A DNA stretch of 64,000 bases from a virus (Duplodnaviria; Heunggongvirae; Uroviricota; Caudoviricetes). How positions within the stretch are numbered: position 1 is the first letter of the stretch; each line of letters opens with the position of its first letter. Location of the stretch: IMG/VR virus record IMGVR_UViG_3300046523_000117. The stretch is one strand, 5' to 3'. A program made the translations under genes and the position numbers. The notes beneath the pieces were generated by a model. That model was given only the letters and a program-made list of their open reading frames with translations. It did not search any database and was not told the DNA's origin. This document shows positions 1,627 to 11,445 of the stretch, in pieces.

Positions 1627-1694
1627 TTGCTTAGTTGGTATGGTCAGTATAGCAGGGGTTGCATCAAATACAACCCCTTTGCATCAATTATTTT
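1627..1694 (-). promoter_or_regulatory. PeSL-like cassette, class A
   Basis: GGTATGGTCAGTATAGC AGGGGTTGcatcaaataCAACCCCT TTGCATCAATTATTTT. Confidence 0.6.
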
Positions 1695-2346: not shown

Positions 2347-2556
2347 TCAAGCCCCTTCTGTTATTGGTTTGTCCAGAATATCGACAGCGGTACAAACTGC
2401 CATATAGTCGTGTTCGCCTTTGCCGACGTTGAAAGTATTCCCGACATAATAGGCTAGGATTTCAGAATCGGTTATTTTCCCGTTCATGCTACCACCTTCG
2501 GACCATACCGCCCCGTCTTCGCCTTTCCAGTGTGTTCTAAACGATCTTAAAGCCAT
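2347..2556 (-). CDS. hypothetical protein (69 aa)
   Basis: ORF trimmed to MALRS, preceded by AAGGGGAttcaatc; the upstream part of the track ORF is the repeat. Confidence 0.45.
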   Translation of the reverse strand: MALRSFRTHWKGEDGAVWSEGGSMNGKITDSEILAYYVGNTFNVGKGEHDYMAVCTAVDILDKPITEGA

Positions 2557-2624
2557 GATTGAATCCCCTTGAATATGGTTCATTCTAGCAAGGGGCTGCA
2601 TTTGATGCAACCCCTATTTTTGAA
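2557..2624 (-). promoter_or_regulatory. PeSL-like cassette, class A with flipped loop
   Basis: TTCTAGCAAGGGGCTGcatttgatgCAACCCCTATTTTT; -10 TAGAAT on the minus strand. Confidence 0.55.
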
Positions 2625-2918
2625 TCAGTCCAGATAAATTTTGGTAGCGATTACGCCAGCTTCCCGCAACTTGTCGTGACCTTTGACAGTGATATACGCG
2701 AAGTGTAACAGCGATTCGCCGGGGATACTGGTACGCGAGTCGGCCCGGTTCCGTATTTCTTCGGATTCCAGTTTGATGCGCAGAGACTTGCACAGGGCTT
2801 TAACCGTGGCGTCATTCGAATTGTCCCAAACAAGGGAAAACTTTTTGTAGCAGAATTCGGAATAAATCAGTTTGTCAACCGGTTGTGCTTCGCCCATTTC
2901 AGGATAATAACCGCTCAT
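2625..2918 (-). CDS. hypothetical protein (97 aa)
   Basis: ORF trimmed to MSGYY, preceded by AGAAGGGGctacaaa. Confidence 0.5.
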   Translation of the reverse strand: MSGYYPEMGEAQPVDKLIYSEFCYKKFSLVWDNSNDATVKALCKSLRIKLESEEIRNRADSRTSIPGESLLHFAYITVKGHDKLREAGVIATKIYLD

Positions 2919-3010
2919 TTTGTAGCCCCTTCTGGTTTGTTTTGCTTCGATATGGGTTATTCTAGCAGCTATTTGATGCAATGCAAGCATTTGATGCAAT
3001 TATTTTCAGA
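2919..3010 (-). promoter_or_regulatory. PeSL-like cassette, class B
   Basis: GCTATTTGATGCAATGCAAGCATTTGATGCAATTATTTT, directly after terminator 3014..3045. Confidence 0.55.
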
Positions 3011-3013
3011 CAA

Positions 3014-3045
3014 CAAAAAGCCCCGGTTTATCTGGGGCTTTTCAA
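3014..3045. terminator. bidirectional rho-independent terminator
   Basis: AAAAAGCCCCGGtttatCTGGGGCTTTTC. Confidence 0.7.
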
Positions 3046-3055
3046 TGGTTCGCGA

Positions 3056-3328
3056 TTAGATCAGGTCGGCCAGCTTGTAACCCATTGCAGCCTCGACCAT
3101 AGGCGTGATGGTCCGGGACGATTCACCGTAAACAATCACGCCACCTTTCGGCATCCATGTCAATTGGTCAGGCTTGAAAACATCAATTCGCATGATGTTA
3201 TTCTTTTTCGAGTTCGCGACATACGCCCGACCATGCCCGTCTTTTTCTGCTTTTTCTTGGGCTTCGATCAACCCGGCCAGAATACGATCTTGCATTACCG
3301 GGTGTTTTAGGCTGGTTTGGGTCAACAT
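3056..3328 (-). CDS. hypothetical protein (90 aa)
   Basis: minus-strand ORF. Confidence 0.5.
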   Translation of the reverse strand: MLTQTSLKHPVMQDRILAGLIEAQEKAEKDGHGRAYVANSKKNNIMRIDVFKPDQLTWMPKGGVIVYGESSRTITPMVEAAMGYKLADLI

Positions 3329-3400
3329 GATGATAATTCCGTTTCGGTTGGTATGAGTGGATTATGTTCTGAAATAATCCACTAGTCAAGGGGTTTTAAA
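3329..3400 (-). promoter_or_regulatory. PeSL-like cassette, degenerate
   Basis: CCGTTTCGGTTGGTATGAGTGG...CAAGGGGTTTTAAATCAAATTTGATTC. Confidence 0.4.
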
Positions 3401-3598
3401 TCAAATTTGATTCAGTGTATCCGCTAGAGCTTCGGCGGCAGCCTTGCTTAGTCCGGCCTGTATACATTCGTCAGACTCGCTCATAACCATCCAGCGGCCC
3501 GACAACGGGTTAAACTCGGCCCGGTATACTACAAACTGGCCTATAACGGCGTGTAGGGGCTTAGGCGAGCTTGTAGGGGTAGACATAACCGGCAACAT
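3401..3598 (-). CDS. hypothetical protein (65 aa)
   Basis: minus-strand ORF. Confidence 0.45.
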   Translation of the reverse strand: MLPVMSTPTSSPKPLHAVIGQFVVYRAEFNPLSGRWMVMSESDECIQAGLSKAAAEALADTLNQI

Positions 3599-3669
3599 AG
3601 GAAAATCTCCGAAAAGTTAAAAGCAAGTCAGACTAACAGGGGTTAACCGGATGTCAACCCCTCATTTGA
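3599..3669 (-). promoter_or_regulatory. PeSL-like cassette, variant hairpin
   Basis: AGGGGTTaaccggatgtcAACCCCT then CATTTGATCAAAT. Confidence 0.45.
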
Positions 3670-3945
3670 TCAAATCTTGATCGTTTCCCATGCTTTGCCG
3701 AAGTTCCATAGGGTTTTAGGGTAGTCGCGGTTGCGCTCAAAGGCGATAAGGCTAACCATGCCGTTTGCCTCGACAATGACAAACGCAACACTTTGAACCA
3801 AAATATTTGATTCCAACAACCGGCGAGCCGAACCGCGAGCGTCAAACATGGTAACCACAAGTTCCCGGCTTTCGATCTTGACCAGTGTATCTAGGTCAAA
3901 CAATGCGCGGAGTGGGTTGGTTTTAGCTGGGAGACGAAAGGACAT
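3670..3945 (-). CDS. hypothetical protein (91 aa)
   Basis: minus-strand ORF. Confidence 0.5.
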   Translation of the reverse strand: MSFRLPAKTNPLRALFDLDTLVKIESRELVVTMFDARGSARRLLESNILVQSVAFVIVEANGMVSLIAFERNRDYPKTLWNFGKAWETIKI

Positions 3946-4021
3946 TTTGATAACTCCGGTTCGGGTTGGTGTATGGCTATTCTAGCAAGGGGTTACAATT
4001 GATGCAACCCCTATTTCGATT
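3946..4021 (-). promoter_or_regulatory. PeSL-like cassette, class A with flipped loop
   Basis: TTCGGGTTGGTGTATGGCTATTCTAGCAAGGGGTTacaattgatgcAACCCCTATTTCGATTTTATTT. Confidence 0.6.
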
Positions 4022-4468
4022 TTATTTCAAACCGTTAAACAGTGTTTGCAGGTTTGGTAAATTCAATTCAGAAAACAGCCAGTCGTTAGCCTGATGGATA
4101 AAATCCCCCTCATAACCCGAGCCGATAAAATCCATGCCAACCAAACCCCAGAGGGATTCGATATTGATCCATTCCTCGGTTGGAATCGGGCGAACCTGCA
4201 TCACCGCCCCATAAACCCCTTGAGAGTTCACACGGGCGCGAAACGCTCTCTTTTGGCGTGCCAGTGTGGTTACTTCGATATCCGGGTTAGCTTCCGGGTT
4301 GTAGCAGTCCCCGCAAAGATCCTCAAAACTATAATTATCGTCTTCGACCAAAACGATTCGGAACAACCCGAGCATAAACGCCGAAGTCACACGGGTTACG
4401 TCGGTATTCTTACCCACTGTTTTCAAAACTTCTTTCGTTATGTTCTTGCCGTTGTCTGCATAGTTCAT
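4022..4468 (-). CDS. hypothetical protein (148 aa)
   Basis: minus-strand ORF. Confidence 0.55.
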   Translation of the reverse strand: MNYADNGKNITKEVLKTVGKNTDVTRVTSAFMLGLFRIVLVEDDNYSFEDLCGDCYNPEANPDIEVTTLARQKRAFRARVNSQGVYGAVMQVRPIPTEEWINIESLWGLVGMDFIGSGYEGDFIHQANDWLFSELNLPNLQTLFNGLK

Positions 4469-4546
4469 GATGTTGCCCCTGTTTTGGTTGGTGTATGGTC
4501 AGTATAAAGGGTTTGCATCAATTGTCAAACCCTTTTGCATCAAATT
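4469..4546 (-). promoter_or_regulatory. PeSL-like cassette, class A variant
   Basis: CCCCTGTTTTGGTTGGTGTATGGTCAGTATAAAGGGTTTGcatcaattgtCAAACCCTTTTGCATCAAATTTTAC. Confidence 0.6.
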
Positions 4547-4852
4547 TTACAAATGAGTATCCAGACCAGTGACGCGGGTAAATTCGCTTTGCAGCATGTC
4601 GCAATAGATACCCTCGACTTTGCAAACCATTTTCAGGTTAACGCCGCGAGTGTAATAGAATTCGATGTCATACAAATCCGCTGGGGTCAAGATGATTTTA
4701 ACCAAATTGATTTTATCTTTTGCGAAATTAGAAGGCATTTTGAACTGTAGGAAGTTTTCACCACCAACAAATTGCTTGACACCACACATTACAGCGAACT
4801 TGTGGCCGCCGAGTTGTTGGCGGATGGTTTCGGCTATGATCAATTTGGACAT
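4547..4852 (-). CDS. hypothetical protein (101 aa)
   Basis: minus-strand ORF. Confidence 0.5.
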   Translation of the reverse strand: MSKLIIAETIRQQLGGHKFAVMCGVKQFVGGENFLQFKMPSNFAKDKINLVKIILTPADLYDIEFYYTRGVNLKMVCKVEGIYCDMLQSEFTRVTGLDTHL

Positions 4853-4927
4853 TTTCGTATTCCCTGTTTTGGTTGGTGTGTGGTTAGTATAGCAGGGGTT
4901 GCATCAAATACAACCCCCTATTTGATT
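4853..4927 (-). promoter_or_regulatory. PeSL-like cassette, class A
   Basis: CCCTGTTTTGGTTGGTGTGTGGTTAGTATAGCAGGGGTTGcatcaaataCAACCCCCTATTTGATTTTATTTG. Confidence 0.6.
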
Positions 4928-5131
4928 TTATTTGTGGTTCAAACGATCCAGATAGCCAGACGCATAGTAATACGCGCCCATATTGCAAGGCTTGAACCCA
5001 ACCGGGTTTTCCAAATTGAATTTTTCGATACACGCGGCCAACCCCATGCCCGCGATATCAGCAGCGGCAGATTCCCAACCTTTCATGTAGTCCGGTTGAT
5101 GTTCGGTATGGGTTACAGTGCGAGGGGCCAT
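4928..5131 (-). CDS. hypothetical protein (67 aa)
   Basis: minus-strand ORF. Confidence 0.45.
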   Translation of the reverse strand: MAPRTVTHTEHQPDYMKGWESAAADIAGMGLAACIEKFNLENPVGFKPCNMGAYYYASGYLDRLNHK

Positions 5132-5210
5132 TTTTGAAACTCCGGTTTGGTTGGTGTATGATCAGTATAGCAGGGGTTGCATCAAATACAACCCCTTTCT
5201 ATCAAATTAT
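5132..5210 (-). promoter_or_regulatory. PeSL-like cassette, class A
   Basis: GTTTGGTTGGTGTATGATCAGTATAGCAGGGGTTGcatcaaataCAACCCCT. Confidence 0.6.
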
Positions 5211-5534
5211 TTAAAAATTGTAGTCGTAGAATTTGCGCGGGGCTTCGGCTAATACATGCTTGCCGTAGGCACTGTGAAAGTAACCATCTTTACGCAACCG
5301 GCAACGAATAACCGGGGCGGATTCATCACTGGCATAAATCCATTTTTGGGTTTGTTGGTTTGTACAATGACCAGCAAAGCCACCGGGGATAATGTTCGGC
5401 TTCCAGCTTGGATCTAGGGTTGCCGTCATAGAGCGGACTTCGATAGTCTTTTCGCTTATGACCTTGACAATTTCGAATGGTTGGATATCGCTGTAACCGT
5501 GCATGTTCGCGAATTTCATTTCTGTCATGTCCAT
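5211..5534 (-). CDS. hypothetical protein (107 aa)
   Basis: minus-strand ORF. Confidence 0.5.
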   Translation of the reverse strand: MDMTEMKFANMHGYSDIQPFEIVKVISEKTIEVRSMTATLDPSWKPNIIPGGFAGHCTNQQTQKWIYASDESAPVIRCRLRKDGYFHSAYGKHVLAEAPRKFYDYNF

Positions 5535-5625
5535 TTTATTTCTCCGGGGTTGTTTTGTTTCGATATGGTTAGTCTACGCCTAATTTGATGCAATGCAAGC
5601 ATTTGATGCAAATATTTTAAAATAA
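5535..5625 (-). promoter_or_regulatory. PeSL-like cassette, class B
   Basis: TTGTTTCGATATGGTTAGTCTACGCCTAATTTGATGCAATGCAAGCATTTGATGCAAATATTTT. Confidence 0.55.
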
Positions 5626-5749
5626 TTTTTGGCACATCAATTGCATAGACAAGAATCATGCCAACTCAAATCTCGCCCACCCTCCCTGTTTACCTCTGAG
5701 CCTCCCCAGTAACTATAGAATAGCACACTCAAAACAGAATACAACCCCG

Positions 5750-5780
5750 GAACAAAAATAAACCCGACTTTCGCCGGGTC
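5750..5780 (-). terminator. putative rho-independent terminator (minus-oriented)
   Basis: AAAAATAAACCCGactttcgcCGGGT on the plus strand, read as hairpin plus U-run on the minus strand after gene 5796..6005. Confidence 0.45.
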
Positions 5781-5795
5781 TATTGGTTTGATGCA

Positions 5796-6005
5796 TTACG
5801 CCGGTTTTTTGATGTCGTGGCCCCAGTCGTCAACCGTATTAGGCCCATCGTATACAGCCGCGTATAAGGTCGTAACCGCACTAACCCGGATACCAACCCC
5901 ACAACACAACGCAACGCCTACCAGTGGCTTGCGGCCCGCTTGCACGTTGTATTCCACCGGGCTGTTTAACTTCAATTCTTGCTTACAGTGTGGGCATTCC
6001 ATCAA
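5796..6005 (-). CDS. Zn-ribbon-like small protein (69 aa)
   Basis: CPHCK...CC cysteine pairs. Confidence 0.5.
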   Translation of the reverse strand: MMECPHCKQELKLNSPVEYNVQAGRKPLVGVALCCGVGIRVSAVTTLYAAVYDGPNTVDDWGHDIKKPA

Positions 6006-6008
6006 ATA

Positions 6009-6338
6009 CTACTCCGGGTTTTTGAAAACGTCCGGGTCTTCCCGTTCCATTTCTTCAAGGGTTTGAATCCGGGGAACCTTGATCCCGTTGGCGACAATAT
6101 AAACTTTCAGGGTCAGTTCATAGTCGTTATTGCGCAGGCTATTCAAATAAGCCTTTACAGAGTCGGACAACACGCCTTCGCCTTTCTCAATGAATTCATC
6201 CAGCTTTATCGCTGCATCTGTCATGGTCGGGCCTGTATAGATTTGGAAGCTTGCAACGTGCTGCATATCACCTTTAAGGTTTGGATAGAAAACATCTATA
6301 CAGGTTTTGTAGTAGCCGGGGGTTGATGTCATTGGCAT
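6009..6338 (-). CDS. hypothetical protein (109 aa)
   Basis: minus-strand ORF, 3 nt after the upstream gene. Confidence 0.5.
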   Translation of the reverse strand: MPMTSTPGYYKTCIDVFYPNLKGDMQHVASFQIYTGPTMTDAAIKLDEFIEKGEGVLSDSVKAYLNSLRNNDYELTLKVYIVANGIKVPRIQTLEEMEREDPDVFKNPE

Positions 6339-6341
6339 GGT

Positions 6342-6512
6342 TTATGCTCCAGTATATGGGGTCAGGTCGCGTTCATGAAAAGAGCCAGCATCACCGCCGA
6401 TAGTACCGAACCGGCAGCTATACCAGCCATTGGCACGAACTTCGGTGATAGTCAACCAAAAAGGACCATCAGCCATAACTTTGTCTTTAATCGAGAATTT
6501 GTTATCTAGCAT
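6342..6512 (-). CDS. hypothetical small protein (56 aa, below the ORF-track cutoff)
   Basis: Found by hand translation: MLDNKFSIKDKVMADGPFWLTITEVRANGWYSCRFGTIGGDAGSFHERDLTPYTGA. It fills the gap between a PeSL and gene 6009..6338. Confidence 0.4.
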   Translation of the reverse strand: MLDNKFSIKDKVMADGPFWLTITEVRANGWYSCRFGTIGGDAGSFHERDLTPYTGA

Positions 6513-6585
6513 GATGGCGGTTCCTTGTTGGTGTATGGTCAGTATAGCAGGGGTTGCATCAAATACAACCCCTTTGCATCAATTT
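6513..6585 (-). promoter_or_regulatory. PeSL-like cassette, class A
   Basis: CCTTGTTGGTGTATGGTCAGTATAGCAGGGGTTGcatcaaataCAACCCCTTTGCATCAATTTTTAC. Confidence 0.6.
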
Positions 6586-6828
6586 TTACAGGTATTCGGC
6601 CATATAGGCAGACAGTTCAACCAATACAGGCGTTTTATCGGGGCTATTGAACTGGATAAAATCGTTTGCGCAAAACACATAGACACTATGGTAAGTGTCG
6701 GTTTCGCGGGTCTTCCAGATATCTAAACGGATTTCCCGGCCTTGAGGCGTGACCATTTCAGCCTCAAAAATTTTATCCGCAAGCCCGGTACTGATTTGTT
6801 TCAGGGGTTTAACATCACCGATAGCCAT
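6586..6828 (-). CDS. hypothetical protein (80 aa)
   Basis: minus-strand ORF. Confidence 0.5.
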   Translation of the reverse strand: MAIGDVKPLKQISTGLADKIFEAEMVTPQGREIRLDIWKTRETDTYHSVYVFCANDFIQFNSPDKTPVLVELSAYMAEYL

Positions 6829-6913
6829 TGCGCAAATCCTTGTATTGGTTGGTGTATTAGGATTATGGCATCAACGGCAATAGCTGTCAAGCTATTTGAT
6901 GCAATTATTTCAA
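6829..6913 (-). promoter_or_regulatory. PeSL-like cassette, class B / degenerate
   Basis: TTGTATTGGTTGGTGTATTAGG...GCTATTTGATGCAATTATTTCAATT. Confidence 0.4.
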
Positions 6914-7117
6914 TTAAATTTCATGTTCGAATTTGTGCCCGACATTTTCCCAATAGGTCGCGGTGACCTCATAACCATCCTTCGCCGGGAAACGCTCTCT
7001 AAGGACATTTAACAGCATGATTGCGCTGGTTTCGGTAACCGCCGACCTTTCAGCCGTGGCGAATAGGTGACGGCCTTTATAACTTACGTTGATTTCGTAA
7101 TGCGATTGATTAGCCAT
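6914..7117 (-). CDS. hypothetical protein (67 aa)
   Basis: minus-strand ORF. Confidence 0.45.
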   Translation of the reverse strand: MANQSHYEINVSYKGRHLFATAERSAVTETSAIMLLNVLRERFPAKDGYEVTATYWENVGHKFEHEI

Positions 7118-7118
7118 G

Positions 7119-7409
7119 TCAAGCCCCTTTCATCCAGTTATTCAGTGTACGAATAGAATCACCACGCGGGCGACTCTGATAGGCAAACGAGTATTCTAAC
7201 CAGTCCCACGCCTTACCAGCACGAACCATGCCCATTAGGCGTTCCAGCTTACCGATACGACGATAAACCTTTGCAGTGACCAACCGGGGGCTTTCCCACT
7301 GATAACCATCCTCAGAACCCACACGCACGAACCCATGCTTTTCTAGCAGTGTGTCGCGTTCGGCTTCAAGGGCTTTGTAGTATGCGGTTCGAATGGTTGC
7401 CATGATCAA
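7119..7409 (-). CDS. hypothetical protein (96 aa)
   Basis: minus-strand ORF, 1 nt after the upstream gene. Confidence 0.5.
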   Translation of the reverse strand: MIMATIRTAYYKALEAERDTLLEKHGFVRVGSEDGYQWESPRLVTAKVYRRIGKLERLMGMVRAGKAWDWLEYSFAYQSRPRGDSIRTLNNWMKGA

Positions 7410-7464
7410 ATCCCTGTTTCGGTTGGTATGGGGTTAGTATAACCCCATTTGATGCAATTGCAAA
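7410..7464 (-). promoter_or_regulatory. PeSL-like cassette, variant
   Basis: CCCTGTTTCGGTTGGTATGGGGTTAGTATAACCCCATTTGATGCAATTGCAAATTAATTTTTAG. Confidence 0.5.
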
Positions 7465-7713
7465 TTAATTTTTAGGGATTTTGTCACCCGGCAAATACTG
7501 GCGAACAATCCCGTCATTGCACAACCGTACAAGGTTGCCCAGTTCGTCGCGGTATTGAGCTAAGCACGAATCGCCACGGATTTGACGGACTTTGTTAGTC
7601 ATGATCCGTTGATCATTGCGCGGCAGTTTGGCATAGATTTCAGTTGCATTTTTGTCGGCTATTGCTTGATCGACAAACTGAGTTAGCAACAGTTGTTTTT
7701 TGAATTCGTGCAT
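7465..7713 (-). CDS. hypothetical protein (82 aa)
   Basis: minus-strand ORF. Confidence 0.5.
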   Translation of the reverse strand: MHEFKKQLLLTQFVDQAIADKNATEIYAKLPRNDQRIMTNKVRQIRGDSCLAQYRDELGNLVRLCNDGIVRQYLPGDKIPKN

Positions 7714-7788
7714 TTCAAAACCCTCTTTTCGTTTGGTGTGATAGAAGTATAATAGGGGATTGCATCAAATGCAACCCCCTATTTGATT
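7714..7788 (-). promoter_or_regulatory. PeSL-like cassette, class A
   Basis: TCGTTTGGTGTGATAGAAGTATAATAGGGGATTGcatcaaatgCAACCCCCTATTTGATTTTATTTTG. Confidence 0.6.
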
Positions 7789-8118
7789 TTATTTTGGGTC
7801 TTCGACTGGTTTATGTTTACCAGTAGTCGAAAGAATCCGCACGTTTTCAACTTCGGATATCGGTACAGTTTCACCCTTGCGGATTTCGTTCACGCCGTCC
7901 TCTTTCGTGATTTTGTTCGGCATGTATTCACTAATGGTATAGTGCGCAGCCTTCGGCAGTTCCACACGACACACGACAGTCATAACCCCATCAGGTTTGT
8001 GGCGATTCAAAGTGCTAACCCCTATATAACGGGCAGCCTCCTTTATGGCGCCTTCACGGGTGTCAGCAACACCCCAGCCGTAGGCGGTTGATGCATAATA
8101 GTGGTGATTCATTTTCAA
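7789..8118 (-). CDS. hypothetical protein (109 aa)
   Basis: minus-strand ORF. Confidence 0.5.
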   Translation of the reverse strand: MKMNHHYYASTAYGWGVADTREGAIKEAARYIGVSTLNRHKPDGVMTVVCRVELPKAAHYTISEYMPNKITKEDGVNEIRKGETVPISEVENVRILSTTGKHKPVEDPK

Positions 8119-8495
8119 ACCCCTTTGATTTTCTGGATTGCACCATTGGAAAAGTAAACCACAATATTAGATAACAGTTCCCCGATATCATCCTTTGTAT
8201 TTGGTTCACGCACATAAAAATCAATGATAGCCCGCCCATCGTCTGAGAGTTCCACGCCTTGGGTGAATTGTGACCAGTCAACAGGCGACCACAAATCAGT
8301 ATCAGACCAATTATCGCCAGTTAGATCAGTTACACGGGCGATATTGATATGGGTGTCTTTATCGCGATTGGTCAGGCTTACACGCTCGCCAACTTCGATT
8401 GTTACACGCTTGCGACCAACTTCCTTGCGAGCCGCTTCACGTATTTGAAAGCATTCTTTAGTGCTAGGCTTCCAAACGTTATTGATGATCGACAT
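8115..8495 (-). CDS. hypothetical protein (126 aa)
   Basis: minus-strand ORF with a 4-nt start/stop overlap with the downstream gene. Confidence 0.5.
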   Translation of the reverse strand: MSIINNVWKPSTKECFQIREAARKEVGRKRVTIEVGERVSLTNRDKDTHINIARVTDLTGDNWSDTDLWSPVDWSQFTQGVELSDDGRAIIDFYVREPNTKDDIGELLSNIVVYFSNGAIQKIKGV

Positions 8496-8569
8496 TTCAA
8501 AAATTCCCTGTTTCGGTTGGTGTATGATCAGTATAATAGGGATTGCATCAAATGCAACCCCTATTTGAT
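8496..8569 (-). promoter_or_regulatory. PeSL-like cassette, class A
   Basis: CCCTGTTTCGGTTGGTGTATGATCAGTATAATAGGGATTGcatcaaatgCAACCCCTATTTGATTTAAAT. Confidence 0.6.
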
Positions 8570-8788
8570 TTAAATCTGGTGTGGTGTAAACGTCATACCT
8601 TTAGCCGGACCATCAACCCCCATGCAAACAGATTGGGCCTTGATTGCAGCAGCTTGGGCCTGTTCGAAGGTATCAAACTGCATAGCCAGCTTGATAGAAC
8701 CCATGCAAGCGGTCCCCCACGTATCGCACCACTCATGCAAATAATCAGAACCGGATATCCCATAGGTACGCTTTACTACATAAGCCAT
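8570..8788 (-). CDS. hypothetical protein (72 aa)
   Basis: ORF trimmed to MAYVV, preceded by AAAAGGGGtttgatc. Confidence 0.5.
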   Translation of the reverse strand: MAYVVKRTYGISGSDYLHEWCDTWGTACMGSIKLAMQFDTFEQAQAAAIKAQSVCMGVDGPAKGMTFTPHQI

Positions 8789-8863
8789 GATCAAACCCCT
8801 TTTCGTTTGGTGTGATAGCAGTATAGCAAGGGGTTGTATTTGATGCAACCCCCTTTGATGCAA
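8789..8863 (-). promoter_or_regulatory. PeSL-like cassette, class A with flipped loop
   Basis: TTTCGTTTGGTGTGATAGCAGTATAGCAAGGGGTTGtatttgatgCAACCCCCTTTGATGCAATTATTTTT. Confidence 0.6.
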
Positions 8864-9073
8864 TTATTTTTCCCAATCATGCAAAGTTGTGGTGATTTCC
8901 TCAAACCCATTACCTGCATCATCAAACCAGCACCGCACAACCGCACGACGCCCAGCTATGACCGTTTCGATTTTCGGGTCTTCAACCAAACCGGAAACAT
9001 CACCCAACACTTCAACCGATACGCGATTGGTCCAATTGGTGATTTTTACAAACTTCACGATTTGGTTTGACAT
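8864..9073 (-). CDS. hypothetical protein (69 aa)
   Basis: minus-strand ORF. Confidence 0.45.
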   Translation of the reverse strand: MSNQIVKFVKITNWTNRVSVEVLGDVSGLVEDPKIETVIAGRRAVVRCWFDDAGNGFEEITTTLHDWEK

Positions 9074-9148
9074 TTTGTAGTCCCTGTTTCGGTTGGTGTA
9101 AGATCATTCTATAGGGGTTTGCATCAAATTGCAAACCCCTATTTGATT
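9074..9148 (-). promoter_or_regulatory. PeSL-like cassette, class A (11-bp stem)
   Basis: CCCTGTTTCGGTTGGTGTAAGATCATTCTATAGGGGTTTGCAtcaaatTGCAAACCCCTATTTGATTTTATTTG. Confidence 0.6.
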
Positions 9149-9598
9149 TTATTTGTGGTTCTTTTTGGCTTCGGTCAGGTCAGCAATCAATTTGTTTTGT
9201 TGGTTGACTTCCCATTCAATTTGGTCTACCACATAAACCGCTTGACCTTTTTCGTTTGCACCGTTTTGAACTTGACGGGCCTTCGCTTGTGCTATCCGCA
9301 AATCATTGTAACGGGTTGCGTTTTGGACAGTAGCCCAGCCAGCGGTGTCGCCTTCAAACTTGACACATACACGCAATTTGCCAGTGATAACCATGTAACC
9401 GGTTGGGTTAGTTGCTTTGAAAGCTTCCAGCCGTGCTATGTAGCCTTGCGATTCGGTAATCATGCCGTTAATCATGTCAATCATTGGGTTTACCTTCTGG
9501 TTTAGGTGTTTCAGGCACAGGGCGAACGTGGCTGCATAGTTGTCACCCGGTTGAATGATTTCTTTAGTCAACTTGTGGGCTTGGGCAAATGCGTTCAT
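9149..9598 (-). CDS. hypothetical protein (149 aa)
   Basis: minus-strand ORF. Confidence 0.55.
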   Translation of the reverse strand: MNAFAQAHKLTKEIIQPGDNYAATFALCLKHLNQKVNPMIDMINGMITESQGYIARLEAFKATNPTGYMVITGKLRVCVKFEGDTAGWATVQNATRYNDLRIAQAKARQVQNGANEKGQAVYVVDQIEWEVNQQNKLIADLTEAKKNHK

Positions 9599-9690
9599 GT
9601 TCGTATTCCCTGTTTCGGTTGGTGTAAGGTCAGTATACGCCTAATTTGATGCAATGCAACCCATTTGATGCAATTATTTTAAAATAGTTG
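9599..9690 (-). promoter_or_regulatory. PeSL-like cassette, class B
   Basis: TCCCTGTTTCGGTTGGTGTAAGGTCAGTATACGCCTAATTTGATGCAATGCAACCCATTTGATGCAATTATTTTAAAATAG. Confidence 0.55.
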
Positions 9691-9771
9691 TGGGAAATAT
9701 TCGTGCCAATACCTTTTTGGGGTCGTCAATCCATTTTCTCATATTTTTCTAGGGGATGTCAATACCAACAG

Positions 9772-9800
9772 ACAAAATAAAACCCGGACAATGCCGGGTC
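9772..9800 (-). terminator. putative rho-independent terminator (minus-oriented)
   Basis: ACAAAATAAAACCCGGacaatgCCGGGT on the plus strand, read as hairpin plus U-run on the minus strand after gene 9810..10061. Confidence 0.5.
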
Positions 9801-9809
9801 AAGGTGTTG

Positions 9810-10061
9810 TTACATCACTCGGTTTATCGGATCAATACTAAACAATACTTGCTCATGTAGTGCGGTTTGACAGTCTTGCAGAGTCTTGAATCGATGTTCA
9901 AAGATGGTAACGCCGAGTTTATCCTTGACTGAATAACCGTTATCATGTGCATCGATAACAAAGGTCAGGCAATGCGTCCCCAACATATCAAAGTTAATAA
10001 CAACGTCGGCATGGTAACGCCCGACATATAAGCCACGTAACAAGATCCTATCAATACGCAC
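9810..10061 (-). CDS. hypothetical protein (83 aa)
   Basis: minus-strand ORF. Confidence 0.5.
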   Translation of the reverse strand: MRIDRILLRGLYVGRYHADVVINFDMLGTHCLTFVIDAHDNGYSVKDKLGVTIFEHRFKTLQDCQTALHEQVLFSIDPINRVM

Positions 10062-10069
10062 AAAACCCC

Positions 10070-10282
10070 CTAGAACGCTGTCAGGCGAACGAAAGAACCA
10101 CCCTTTACCAGATCATGTACCAGTTCAGCGCCTTGCACAGCCAGTTCATAGGAACCGTCAATTTGCAGCCAGTGAGTTGAACCCTCATGATAGCTATCGG
10201 TAATCACCCCGATAGTTTCCATGTCTTGGTTGGTTCTGGCTTCTTCGCCCATCAACGCCTTGTGATTATATGTCATGTTCAA
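10070..10282 (-). CDS. hypothetical protein (70 aa)
   Basis: minus-strand ORF. Confidence 0.45.
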   Translation of the reverse strand: MNMTYNHKALMGEEARTNQDMETIGVITDSYHEGSTHWLQIDGSYELAVQGAELVHDLVKGGSFVRLTAF

Positions 10283-10476
10283 ACCTCCTTTACAACAAAC
10301 GCATCAAAGGGATAATCATGCGAAACGTTACCGGTCTTGGTTTCGATAGTCAAGGTGATCCACCCGTCGTGATCCTCGAAACAACGGCTTACTAGTTTGC
10401 CCATGACCAGTTCGCCACTAACTACCATAGCGATGATGTTACCAATTTTTGCATCAACCGCGTTTATCAATTGCAT
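10279..10476 (-). CDS. hypothetical protein (65 aa)
   Basis: minus-strand ORF with a 4-nt overlap. Confidence 0.45.
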   Translation of the reverse strand: MQLINAVDAKIGNIIAMVVSGELVMGKLVSRCFEDHDGWITLTIETKTGNVSHDYPFDAFVVKEV

Positions 10477-10545
10477 GTTTGTCGCTCCCTTGTTGGTGAT
10501 TAGATTCTAGCAAGGGGCTGCAATTGATGCAACCCCTATTTGATG
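10477..10545 (-). promoter_or_regulatory. PeSL-like cassette, class A with flipped loop
   Basis: CCCTTGTTGGTGATTAGATTCTAGCAAGGGGCTGcaattgatgCAACCCCTATTTGATG. Confidence 0.55.
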
Positions 10546-10937: not shown

Positions 10938-11014
10938 TTCGATATTCCCTGTTTCGGTTGGTGTGATAGCAGTATAAAAGGGATTGCATCAAATTACAAC
11001 CCCTTTCTATCAAA
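10938..11014 (-). promoter_or_regulatory. PeSL-like cassette, class A
   Basis: TTCCCTGTTTCGGTTGGTGTGATAGCAGTATAAAAGGGATTGcatcaaattaCAACCCCTTTCTATCAAATTATTTT. Confidence 0.6.
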
Positions 11015-11409: not shown

Positions 11410-11445
11410 GAAAAGAAAAAGCCCCTAGAATCAGGGGCTTATTTT
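11410..11445. terminator. rho-independent terminator
   Basis: AAAAGAAAAAGCCCCTAGAATCAGGGGCTTATTTTAG. Confidence 0.7.

Follow-up and report, generated by a model that had tools for sequence, protein, structure and literature searches.

Do the loops of the hairpins in T4-type phage early-promoter cassettes invert in place, and if so by what route? The question is raised by the first 12 kb of a 64,000-nucleotide stretch of viral DNA (IMG/VR record IMGVR_UViG_3300046523_000117, hereafter the window), a hyperplastic region of small open reading frames (ORFs), each headed by a repeated regulatory cassette, where a first-pass annotation had reported hairpin loops in both orientations. Gene shuffling in T4-like phages is widely attributed to cassettes of this type, promoter-early stem-loops (PeSLs), whose sequence dynamics are poorly documented. 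Taken together, the comparisons below make it quite probable that the palindromic arms of these early-promoter cassettes have allowed repeated and recent inversion of the loops in place, by template switching and with near-neutral outcome.

Hairpin loops face both ways within co-oriented cassettes

The hairpin AGGGGTTG-N9-CAACCCCT and its near variants occupy 14 sites between 1.6 and 11 kb of the window, against a chance expectation of 0.00 for the full pattern in shuffled sequences. Thirteen share one loop family, and the fourteenth (3638-3662) carries an unrelated loop, which shows that loops are not restricted to two states. Every one of these cassettes is intergenic and sits directly 5' of a small same-strand ORF, and they are thus repeated within a T4-type hyperplastic region as PeSLs are. 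On the gene strand all copies follow the same order: first A/T-rich sequence bearing an ATCAAA/TTTGAT motif, next the hairpin and, 2-3 nt beyond its stem, TGn-TATACT or TGn-TAGAAT, then a conserved 'caccaac' leader, a ribosome-binding site and ATG.

Tabulating loop orientation across the 13 copies of the family gave both states, nine reading TTTGAT and four ATCAA on the gene strand (Table 1). The first-pass annotation had named four flipped copies, all of which we find in place, with plus-strand loops catttgatg (2591), caattgatg (3988), tatttgatg (8829) and caattgatg (10513); only its acaattgatg for 3988 needs trimming, as it takes in one arm base. Inversion of the whole element, with copies simply placed on the opposite strand, was considered and rejected, as the flanks of every copy are co-oriented; it is therefore the loop alone that is reversed relative to its surroundings.

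On realignment the flipped loops are exact reverse complements rather than independent variants. The loop at 8829 (CATCAAATA) is the exact reverse complement of the majority loop TATTTGATG, that at 2591 (CATCAAATG) of the loop CATTTGATG found at 7754 and 8538, and the one shared by 3988 and 10513 (CATCAATTG) of the CAATTGATG core within the 4507 loop. Random replacement of the differing bases would yield an exact reverse complement with a probability of 0.04-0.0005 per case, and of at most 0.004 for the longer cases. The loop is partly self-complementary (GYAT-NNN-ATRC), and several copies really differ only at the central TTG versus CAA.

Flips recur in relatives and at orthologous sites

The window phage is T4-like as judged by its large ORFs, which match T4-type gp43 DNA polymerase, UvsX, gp41, both topoisomerase II subunits, gp61, RNA ligases (RnlA) and NAMPT; all window genes lie on the minus strand. 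Its closest isolates are Pseudomonas phages Milchi and Astolliot, with 71.6% amino-acid identity in the polymerase. Megablast of 9 kb of the window against GenBank phages gave no match, and relatives were reached instead through protein search and motif scans. Scans of IMG/VR for the motif yielded three uncultured relatives with the same cassette family, and the cassette is also present in Milchi (BLAST of one cassette) and in Astolliot. Labels L001, L002, L122 and L124 denote stretches compared for the relative IMGVR_UViG_3300047444_000299, which is about 85% identical in nucleotides to the window in the replication region, while L137 and L138 denote Milchi 157-172 kb and Astolliot 157-170 kb, respectively.

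Three relatives with other loop sequences each display their own loop in both orientations. IMGVR_UViG_3300047444_000299 has 13 majority and three flipped loops, including an exact reverse-complement hairpin at L002:5389 set in the same CCCCTGCTATACT context as the majority form. The majority loops of IMGVR_UViG_3300042013_000056, TATCAAACCTA and TATCAAACATA, are accompanied by the minority loops TAGGTTTGATA (two copies) and TATGTTTGATA, and the pairs TAGGTTTGATA/TATCAAACCTA and TATGTTTGATA/TATCAAACATA are exact reverse complements. Adjacent cassettes in Milchi carry TATTTGATA and TATCAAATA, mutual reverse complements between identical flanks. As the loop sequences are genome-specific but their orientations mirror each other within each genome, the inversions postdate loop divergence.

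Orthologous sites differ in the same manner. The flipped hairpin at window 3988 corresponds to a majority-loop hairpin at L001:722, with flanking proteins 61% and 86% identical, and the hairpins at window 10979, 8538 and 5172 are oriented oppositely to their orthologues in IMGVR_UViG_3300042013_000056, with downstream proteins 75-88% identical. The strongest and cleanest case is that of the two isolates: Milchi 163084 reads GTA-AATTGA-TAC and the orthologous Astolliot 162521 reads GTA-TCAATT-TAC, in an alignment 95% identical over 183 columns and upstream of a protein that is itself 95% identical. All six loop columns differ and the two loops are exact reverse complements. At this site, at window 8829 and at L002:5389 the changes are confined to the loop, produce its exact reverse complement and leave stem and context intact. 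As read from assembled genomes, these comparisons demonstrate inversion, its recurrence and its recency on an evolutionary time scale; by our count they require at least three independent events and probably reflect six or more. Since cultured Milchi and Astolliot differ by a flip, flipping during growth, its rate and its effect on expression are directly testable.

In the regions compared, the two isolates harbor about 20 cassettes per genome with a constant stem, GGGGTTGTA...TACAACCCC, and diverse loops (TTACGG, TTCTGG, TTTCGA, AATTGA and others), and orthologous loops are often several bases apart though the flanking proteins are 95-99% identical. Other orthologous hairpins of the pair thus feature multi-base loop replacement, for example TTCTGG versus TTCAAA or TTACGG versus TTCTGG, and the loop is therefore a general hot spot, at which clean, repeated inversions occur alongside multi-base replacements between phages whose adjoining genes are 95-99% identical. 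Astolliot (OM982621.1) is placed by NCBI taxonomy under Otagovirus/Vandenendeviridae, yet its genome measures 174 kb and its DNA polymerase falls among those of T4-type phages, and the Milchi paper likewise regards the placement as a misclassification (PMC11780129).

Broader scans were uninformative: a loose arm-only pattern gave more than 100 unrelated single matches in IMG/VR, none of them informative, the sole match to the cassette in the metagenome scan was a duplicate of a viral contig, the scan of bacterial genomes returned no match to it, and Rfam gave zero family matches across window 1-12.5 kb.

Table 1. Positions, loop orientation and gene-strand sequence of the 14 hairpin cassettes in the window.
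Position	Strand	Feature	Loop orientation	Gene-strand sequence	Remarks
1654..1678	-	Majority-loop hairpin promoter cassette	TTTGAT	AGGGGTTG-TATTTGATG-CAACCCCT, then GC-TATACT	ATG at 1615
2591..2615	-	Flipped-loop hairpin	ATCAA	AGGGGTTG-CATCAAATG-CAGCCCCT, then TGC-TAGAAT	Sense-strand U.G wobble in stem; ATG at 2556
3638..3662	-	Same-arm hairpin, unrelated loop GACATCCGGTT			Loop creates perfect canonical TTGACA -35 box (AGGGGTTGACATCCGGTTAACCCCT)
3988..4012	-	Flipped-loop hairpin	ATCAA	AGGGGTTG-CATCAATTG-TAACCCCT	Orthologous site in IMGVR_UViG_3300047444_000299 oppositely oriented
4507..4534	-	Arm-variant hairpin, majority orientation	TTTGAT	AAGGGTTTG-ACAATTGATG-CAAACCCTT	Compensatory G-C to T-A stem change
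4894..4918	-	Majority-loop hairpin	TTTGAT	GGGGGTTGTATTTGATGCAACCCCT	
5172..5196	-	Majority-loop hairpin	TTTGAT		
6549..6573	-	Majority-loop hairpin	TTTGAT		
7754..7780	-	Majority-orientation hairpin, loop CATTTGATG	TTTGAT	AGGGGGTTGCATTTGATGCAATCCCCT	Sense-strand G.U wobble
8538..8562	-	Majority-orientation hairpin, loop CATTTGATG	TTTGAT	AGGGGTTGCATTTGATGCAATCCCT	Gene-strand G.U wobble
8829..8853	-	Flipped-loop hairpin	ATCAA	GGGGGTTG-CATCAAATA-CAACCCCT	Exact reverse complement of majority hairpin; sense RNA fold weaker than antisense
9113..9140	-	Arm-variant hairpin, majority orientation	TTTGAT	AGGGGTTTGCAATTTGATGCAAACCCCT	
10513..10537	-	Flipped-loop hairpin	ATCAA	AGGGGTTG-CATCAATTG-CAGCCCCT	Identical hairpin in relative, L002:5007
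10979..11004	-	Majority-orientation hairpin	TTTGAT	AGGGGTTGTAATTTGATGCAATCCCT	Orthologous site in IMGVR_UViG_3300042013_000056 oppositely oriented

The hairpin is embedded in the putative promoter and its stem is maintained

Alignment of the cassettes on their -10 boxes shows TTG at the end of the 5' arm and YAT at the beginning of the loop, which together make a putative TTGYAT -35 box; a spacer of 16-17 nt separates it from a TGn-extended -10 box. Between the stem and the -10 hexamer there are 0-4 nt, and the hairpin spans approximately -39 to -15, overlapping both the -35 box and the spacer. This -35/-10 geometry is retained in both loop orientations; because the loop starts with YAT and ends with ATR, a flip preserves the TTGYAT box as well as the stem.

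The arms measure 8-11 bp, with 3-9 bp between them, and stem stabilities range from -13 to -21 kcal/mol. Among 45 distinct hairpins, the non-Watson-Crick stem positions on the gene strand comprise 19 G.U against a single A.C, a bias of the wobbles towards the sense RNA, and compensatory G-C to T-A changes also occur. Judged by these substitutions the stem is a real, strand-specific structure. The sense RNA folds more stably than the antisense in every imperfect window copy, a pattern that suggests a function for the fold in transcripts reading through from the gene upstream. The exceptions are the exact reverse-complement copies at window 8829 and L002:5389, which their weaker sense fold marks as recent flips, as expected shortly after inversion. 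No U-run follows the stem of the embedded-hairpin cassettes of the window, and terminator function is therefore doubtful.

Classical terminator-like hairpins with U-runs are found elsewhere in the region (1166-1187, 5757-5784, 9781-9800 and 11419-11440, minus strand), and two of these share one sequence (AAGCCCCTGATTCTAGGGGCTT). After each come A/T-rich sequence, TTGCATCAAAT and a near-consensus TTGACN-17-TATACT promoter, such that the canonical PeSL layout exists beside the embedded type.

Two further features accompany the hairpins. A second ATCAAA/TTTGAT motif, in either orientation, lies about 20 nt 5' of every hairpin in the window, L001, L002, L124 and L134, and flipped loops were encountered only with the upstream ATCAAA orientation (0/11 versus 7/16; Fisher P = 0.02, from a tally by eye). 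An extra T after the stem was considered as a compensation for the flip and rejected, as flipped loops lack it at L002:5007 and 5389 and an unflipped loop has it at L001:722.

Probable template switching and alternative explanations

We infer a template-switch route from the geometry of arms and loop. In the proposed scheme, an 8-11 bp perfect inverted repeat (GGGGTTG...CAACCCC) would be built into each early promoter, its 5' arm and loop start supplying the -35 box and the rest of the loop together with the 3' arm forming the spacer ahead of the TGn-extended -10 box. A nascent strand that has copied one arm could then anneal to the same arm sequence where it recurs in the opposite template, copy the loop from that strand and switch back within the second arm, leaving the loop inverted; an exchange with a second cassette, aligned in inverted register, would lead to this product as well. 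Because the arms are palindromic, a short segment can be inverted in place. The flips would be nearly neutral, the -35 box and stem being kept, and may persist for that reason, with copies subsequently spreading and becoming homogenised within the genome by inter-cassette exchange. Template switches that invert hairpin loops are a mutation class already on record (PMC8794818).

Several points weigh against this account. The -35 box matches the consensus at three of six positions, a generic sigma-70 scan of the region finds 28 sites, which does not exceed the expectation of 23.4 +/- 5.0 from shuffled sequence, and the assignment of the cassettes as early promoters (and terminators) is a putative one, drawn from consensus only. 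The GCAT-NNN-ATGC loops differ at just three bases, each single case thus being weak when taken alone (P ~0.04). An extra T follows the stem in all four flipped copies of the window, and TAGAAT is the -10 box in three of them, so that fewer than four events could underlie these copies. Cassettes are homogenised within genomes, and some of the orientation differences at orthologous sites could represent replacement by a paralogous cassette rather than inversion there. Finally, the loop states are those of assembled sequences, and the apparent recency is evolutionary, as distinct from flipping inside one phage stock.

Some of the same observations would fit a single ancient inversion that founded a second cassette subfamily, with spread, swapping, crossovers between co-oriented cassettes and parallel point mutations accounting for the rest and no repeated or recent inversions. 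The extra T is common to 4/4 flipped window copies and TGCTAGAAT to 3/4, and cassettes are homogenised within genomes and reshuffled between relatives, so that cassette replacement clearly occurs. We nevertheless regard this explanation as improbable: the loops are genome-specific and yet exact reverse complements in each genome, which would demand multi-base parallel changes, the extra T is uncoupled from orientation in the relative as described above, and the Milchi/Astolliot flip lies in 95%-identical flanks, with that loop present in no other Astolliot copy in the region searched.

Loop orientation might instead be functional, the 9-mer TTGATGCAA (reversed, TTGCATCAA) acting as a recognition site that a flip shifts by about 6 bp and reorients within the promoter, with consequences for expression or termination and with selection keeping both states as a heritable switch. 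The 9-mer occurs 52 times in the window versus ~0.5 expected, keeps a fixed spacing to the -10 box whether or not the promoter contains a hairpin, and is enriched on the sense strand of genes beyond what codon usage explains (16 versus 2.0 +/- 1.3); a relative with a different cassette loop has its own variant enriched, and flipped loops co-occur with one upstream-motif orientation only (Fisher P = 0.02). The factor that would recognize the 9-mer is however hypothetical, within genes it lies at no consistent distance from -10-like boxes, many unrelated loop sequences are tolerated in the cassettes of Milchi, and orientation at orthologous sites varies freely between relatives in a manner that looks like drift. 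We accordingly give selection on orientation little credence.

The first-pass annotation had invoked inversion through the stem by intramolecular recombination or template switching. The inverted loops and their recurrence in relatives uphold inversion as such, and template switching fits, but reciprocal recombination between the arms of one duplex, or cruciform processing, whether homologous (UvsX) or site-specific, is an unlikely source. In its favor, the arms form perfect inverted repeats, recombination is intense in T4-type phages, and experiments have shown it to occur between PeSLs in RB49 and phi1 (Arbiol et al. 2010, PMC2839356). Considering the stiffness of DNA, a duplex should not be able to fold back and synapse through such short arms 3-9 bp apart, and no invertase was noticed beside the hairpins, although no search aimed at invertases was made. 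Arms of this length are also far below the homology usual for RecA/UvsX-type strand exchange, and cruciform cutting gives hairpin-capped breaks rather than inversions; both count against this route. Nor do the elements resemble a programmed invertible switch, as the segment measures 3-9 bp, with recombinases looked for among the large ORFs only.

Assembly or sequencing errors, as palindromes can provoke with some sequencing chemistries, are a scarcely credible source of the flips. Besides the window, independently assembled metagenomes and two isolate genomes of different projects contain them; they are exact reverse complements, unlike typical indel or homopolymer errors; and because the 8-11 bp arms are shorter than assembler k-mers, the 3-9 bases between them cannot be flipped in assembly.

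Relation to promoter-early stem-loops and to other invertible hairpins

PeSLs are described in the T4-type phages RB49/phi1, T4/PST and KVP40/nt-1, according to Arbiol et al. 2010 (PMC2839356) and Comeau et al. 2014 (PMC4122927); their stem-loop immediately precedes the promoter (Comeau 2014, Fig. 3 legend) and is assigned a role as transcription terminator (Arbiol 2010). The window elements resemble them in being short, much-repeated cassettes among the small ORFs of a hyperplastic region, in combining A/T-rich sequence and a stem-loop with a putative sigma-70-like promoter that leads into a ribosome-binding site and start codon, in stems built of G-runs and C-runs as in RB49, and in adjoining gene cassettes that are gained, lost and reordered between relatives. 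Unlike in PeSLs, the stem-loop is embedded in the promoter rather than upstream of it, its 5' arm giving the TTG of the -35 box, and the embedded stems have no U-run. The phage group also differs, consisting here of Pseudomonas phages Milchi and Astolliot and uncultured relatives, to which PeSL-like cassettes are thus extended in an unusual arrangement, with the hairpin inside the promoter.

Rearrangements next to the cassettes are evident. The relative IMGVR_UViG_3300047444_000299 (L124 1067-1072) joins window 9088 straight to 8122 and is without three cassette-headed genes; between window 2357-2979 and L122 643-1111 one module is replaced, and the breakpoints of both changes lie at cassettes; and in IMGVR_UViG_3300042013_000056 gene order is shuffled, orthologues of the genes after 8829, 10979 and 8538 being adjacent in that order. 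Close relatives thus differ by insertions, deletions and replacements, as PeSL-bearing phages do. Such gain, loss and reordering agrees with the published PeSL shuffling model and is a separate process from loop inversion. The modular shuffling to which the first-pass annotation had tied the flips is therefore consistent with what adjoins the hairpins, but loop inversion itself moves no genes.

Term searches of Arbiol et al. 2010 (PMC2839356), and the parts of Comeau et al. 2014 (PMC4122927) examined here, gave no mention of loop orientation variants. Loop inversion is a known kind of small mutation that, as far as those sources extend, is previously unreported for these phage elements, and the present case combines two known things, PeSL-type cassettes and hairpin-loop inversion, in a new setting and at notable frequency. 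A close parallel comes from hairpins of RNA genes whose loops were inverted by template switching (Monttinen & Loytynoja 2022, PMC8794818), in which loop-confined base changes likewise amount to the reverse complement, copied from the opposite strand, with a perfect stem left intact. Those cases are mostly rare single events with 4-nt loops in rRNA or miRNA genes, unlike the multicopy viral promoter cassette considered here, with several independent events among close relatives. Loop flips offer a simple, countable marker of replication or recombination errors at palindromes in a highly recombining virus. Quasi-palindrome templated mutation (Ripley model; phage T4 rII) leaves the same signature as template-switch loop inversion.

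Minute hairpin-loop inversions were reportedly described in chloroplast non-coding DNA by Kelchner and Wendel in 1996. As here, short loops bounded by short inverted repeats change orientation again and again among close relatives, homoplastically and with apparent neutrality; the replication and recombination system differs, and the chloroplast sites lie outside any repeated regulatory cassette. PMC12928735 is a further paper that takes up small inversions. The term 'flip-flop' originates with the flip/flop terminal hairpins of parvoviruses and with poxvirus telomeres, where the two states are made in every replication round by hairpin transfer or resolution. These too present two reverse-complement states of one hairpin sequence. 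They are terminal, however, whereas the window hairpins are internal and their states are seen between copies and genomes, not within one population.

The TTGATRCAA 9-mer outside the hairpins

The loop and 3' arm of the hairpin together form the 9-mer TTGATRCAA, which also occurs well beyond the cassettes. Over window 12000-64000 on the minus strand, TTGATGCAA is found 18 times on the sense strand, mostly within genes (13277, 24121, 28942, 30209, 32965, 35732, 38598, 39213, 41741, 45476, 48535, 51718, 52897, 53254, 55064, 57572, 59611 and 61731), versus 1-4 times for the reverse complement, and the 16 copies inside ORFs compare with the 2.0 +/- 1.3 cited above, obtained after synonymous-codon shuffling. 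Relatives display the same enrichment, and in the phage with cassette loop TTGATACAA that variant ranks first among all 9-mers; six genomes have some of the sites in common, whereas other sites were gained in single lineages. The enrichment is absent from Milchi, for which the Milchi paper reports neither DNA modification nor nicks (PMC11780129).

It is conceivable, if doubtful, that in this phage lineage TTGATRCAA is recognized strand-specifically across the whole genome, perhaps as a motif associated with nicks or as an activator site co-evolving with a phage protein, and that loop inversion reorients it and shifts it by about 6 bp in early promoters. Were this so, loop inversion would amount to fast, heritable tuning of the expression or termination of individual accessory-gene cassettes. 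A Mot-box or middle-promoter reading of the intragenic copies was unsupported, a TAnnnT box lying 5-11 nt downstream in about 5/18 with inconsistent spacing, and an integration host factor (IHF) site reading of ATCAANNNNTTR was dropped, as by eye it fits some non-hairpin promoters only.

Non-hairpin promoters of the hyperplastic region (1970-2000, 2940-3000, 5570-5615, 7436-7464 and 9630-9675, minus strand) have TTGCATCAA within their spacer, with 8 nt left between its end and the -10 box; in majority hairpins approximately this position is taken by TTGATGCAA, oppositely oriented. In three of the non-hairpin promoters TTGCATCAA is directly repeated 18 nt upstream.

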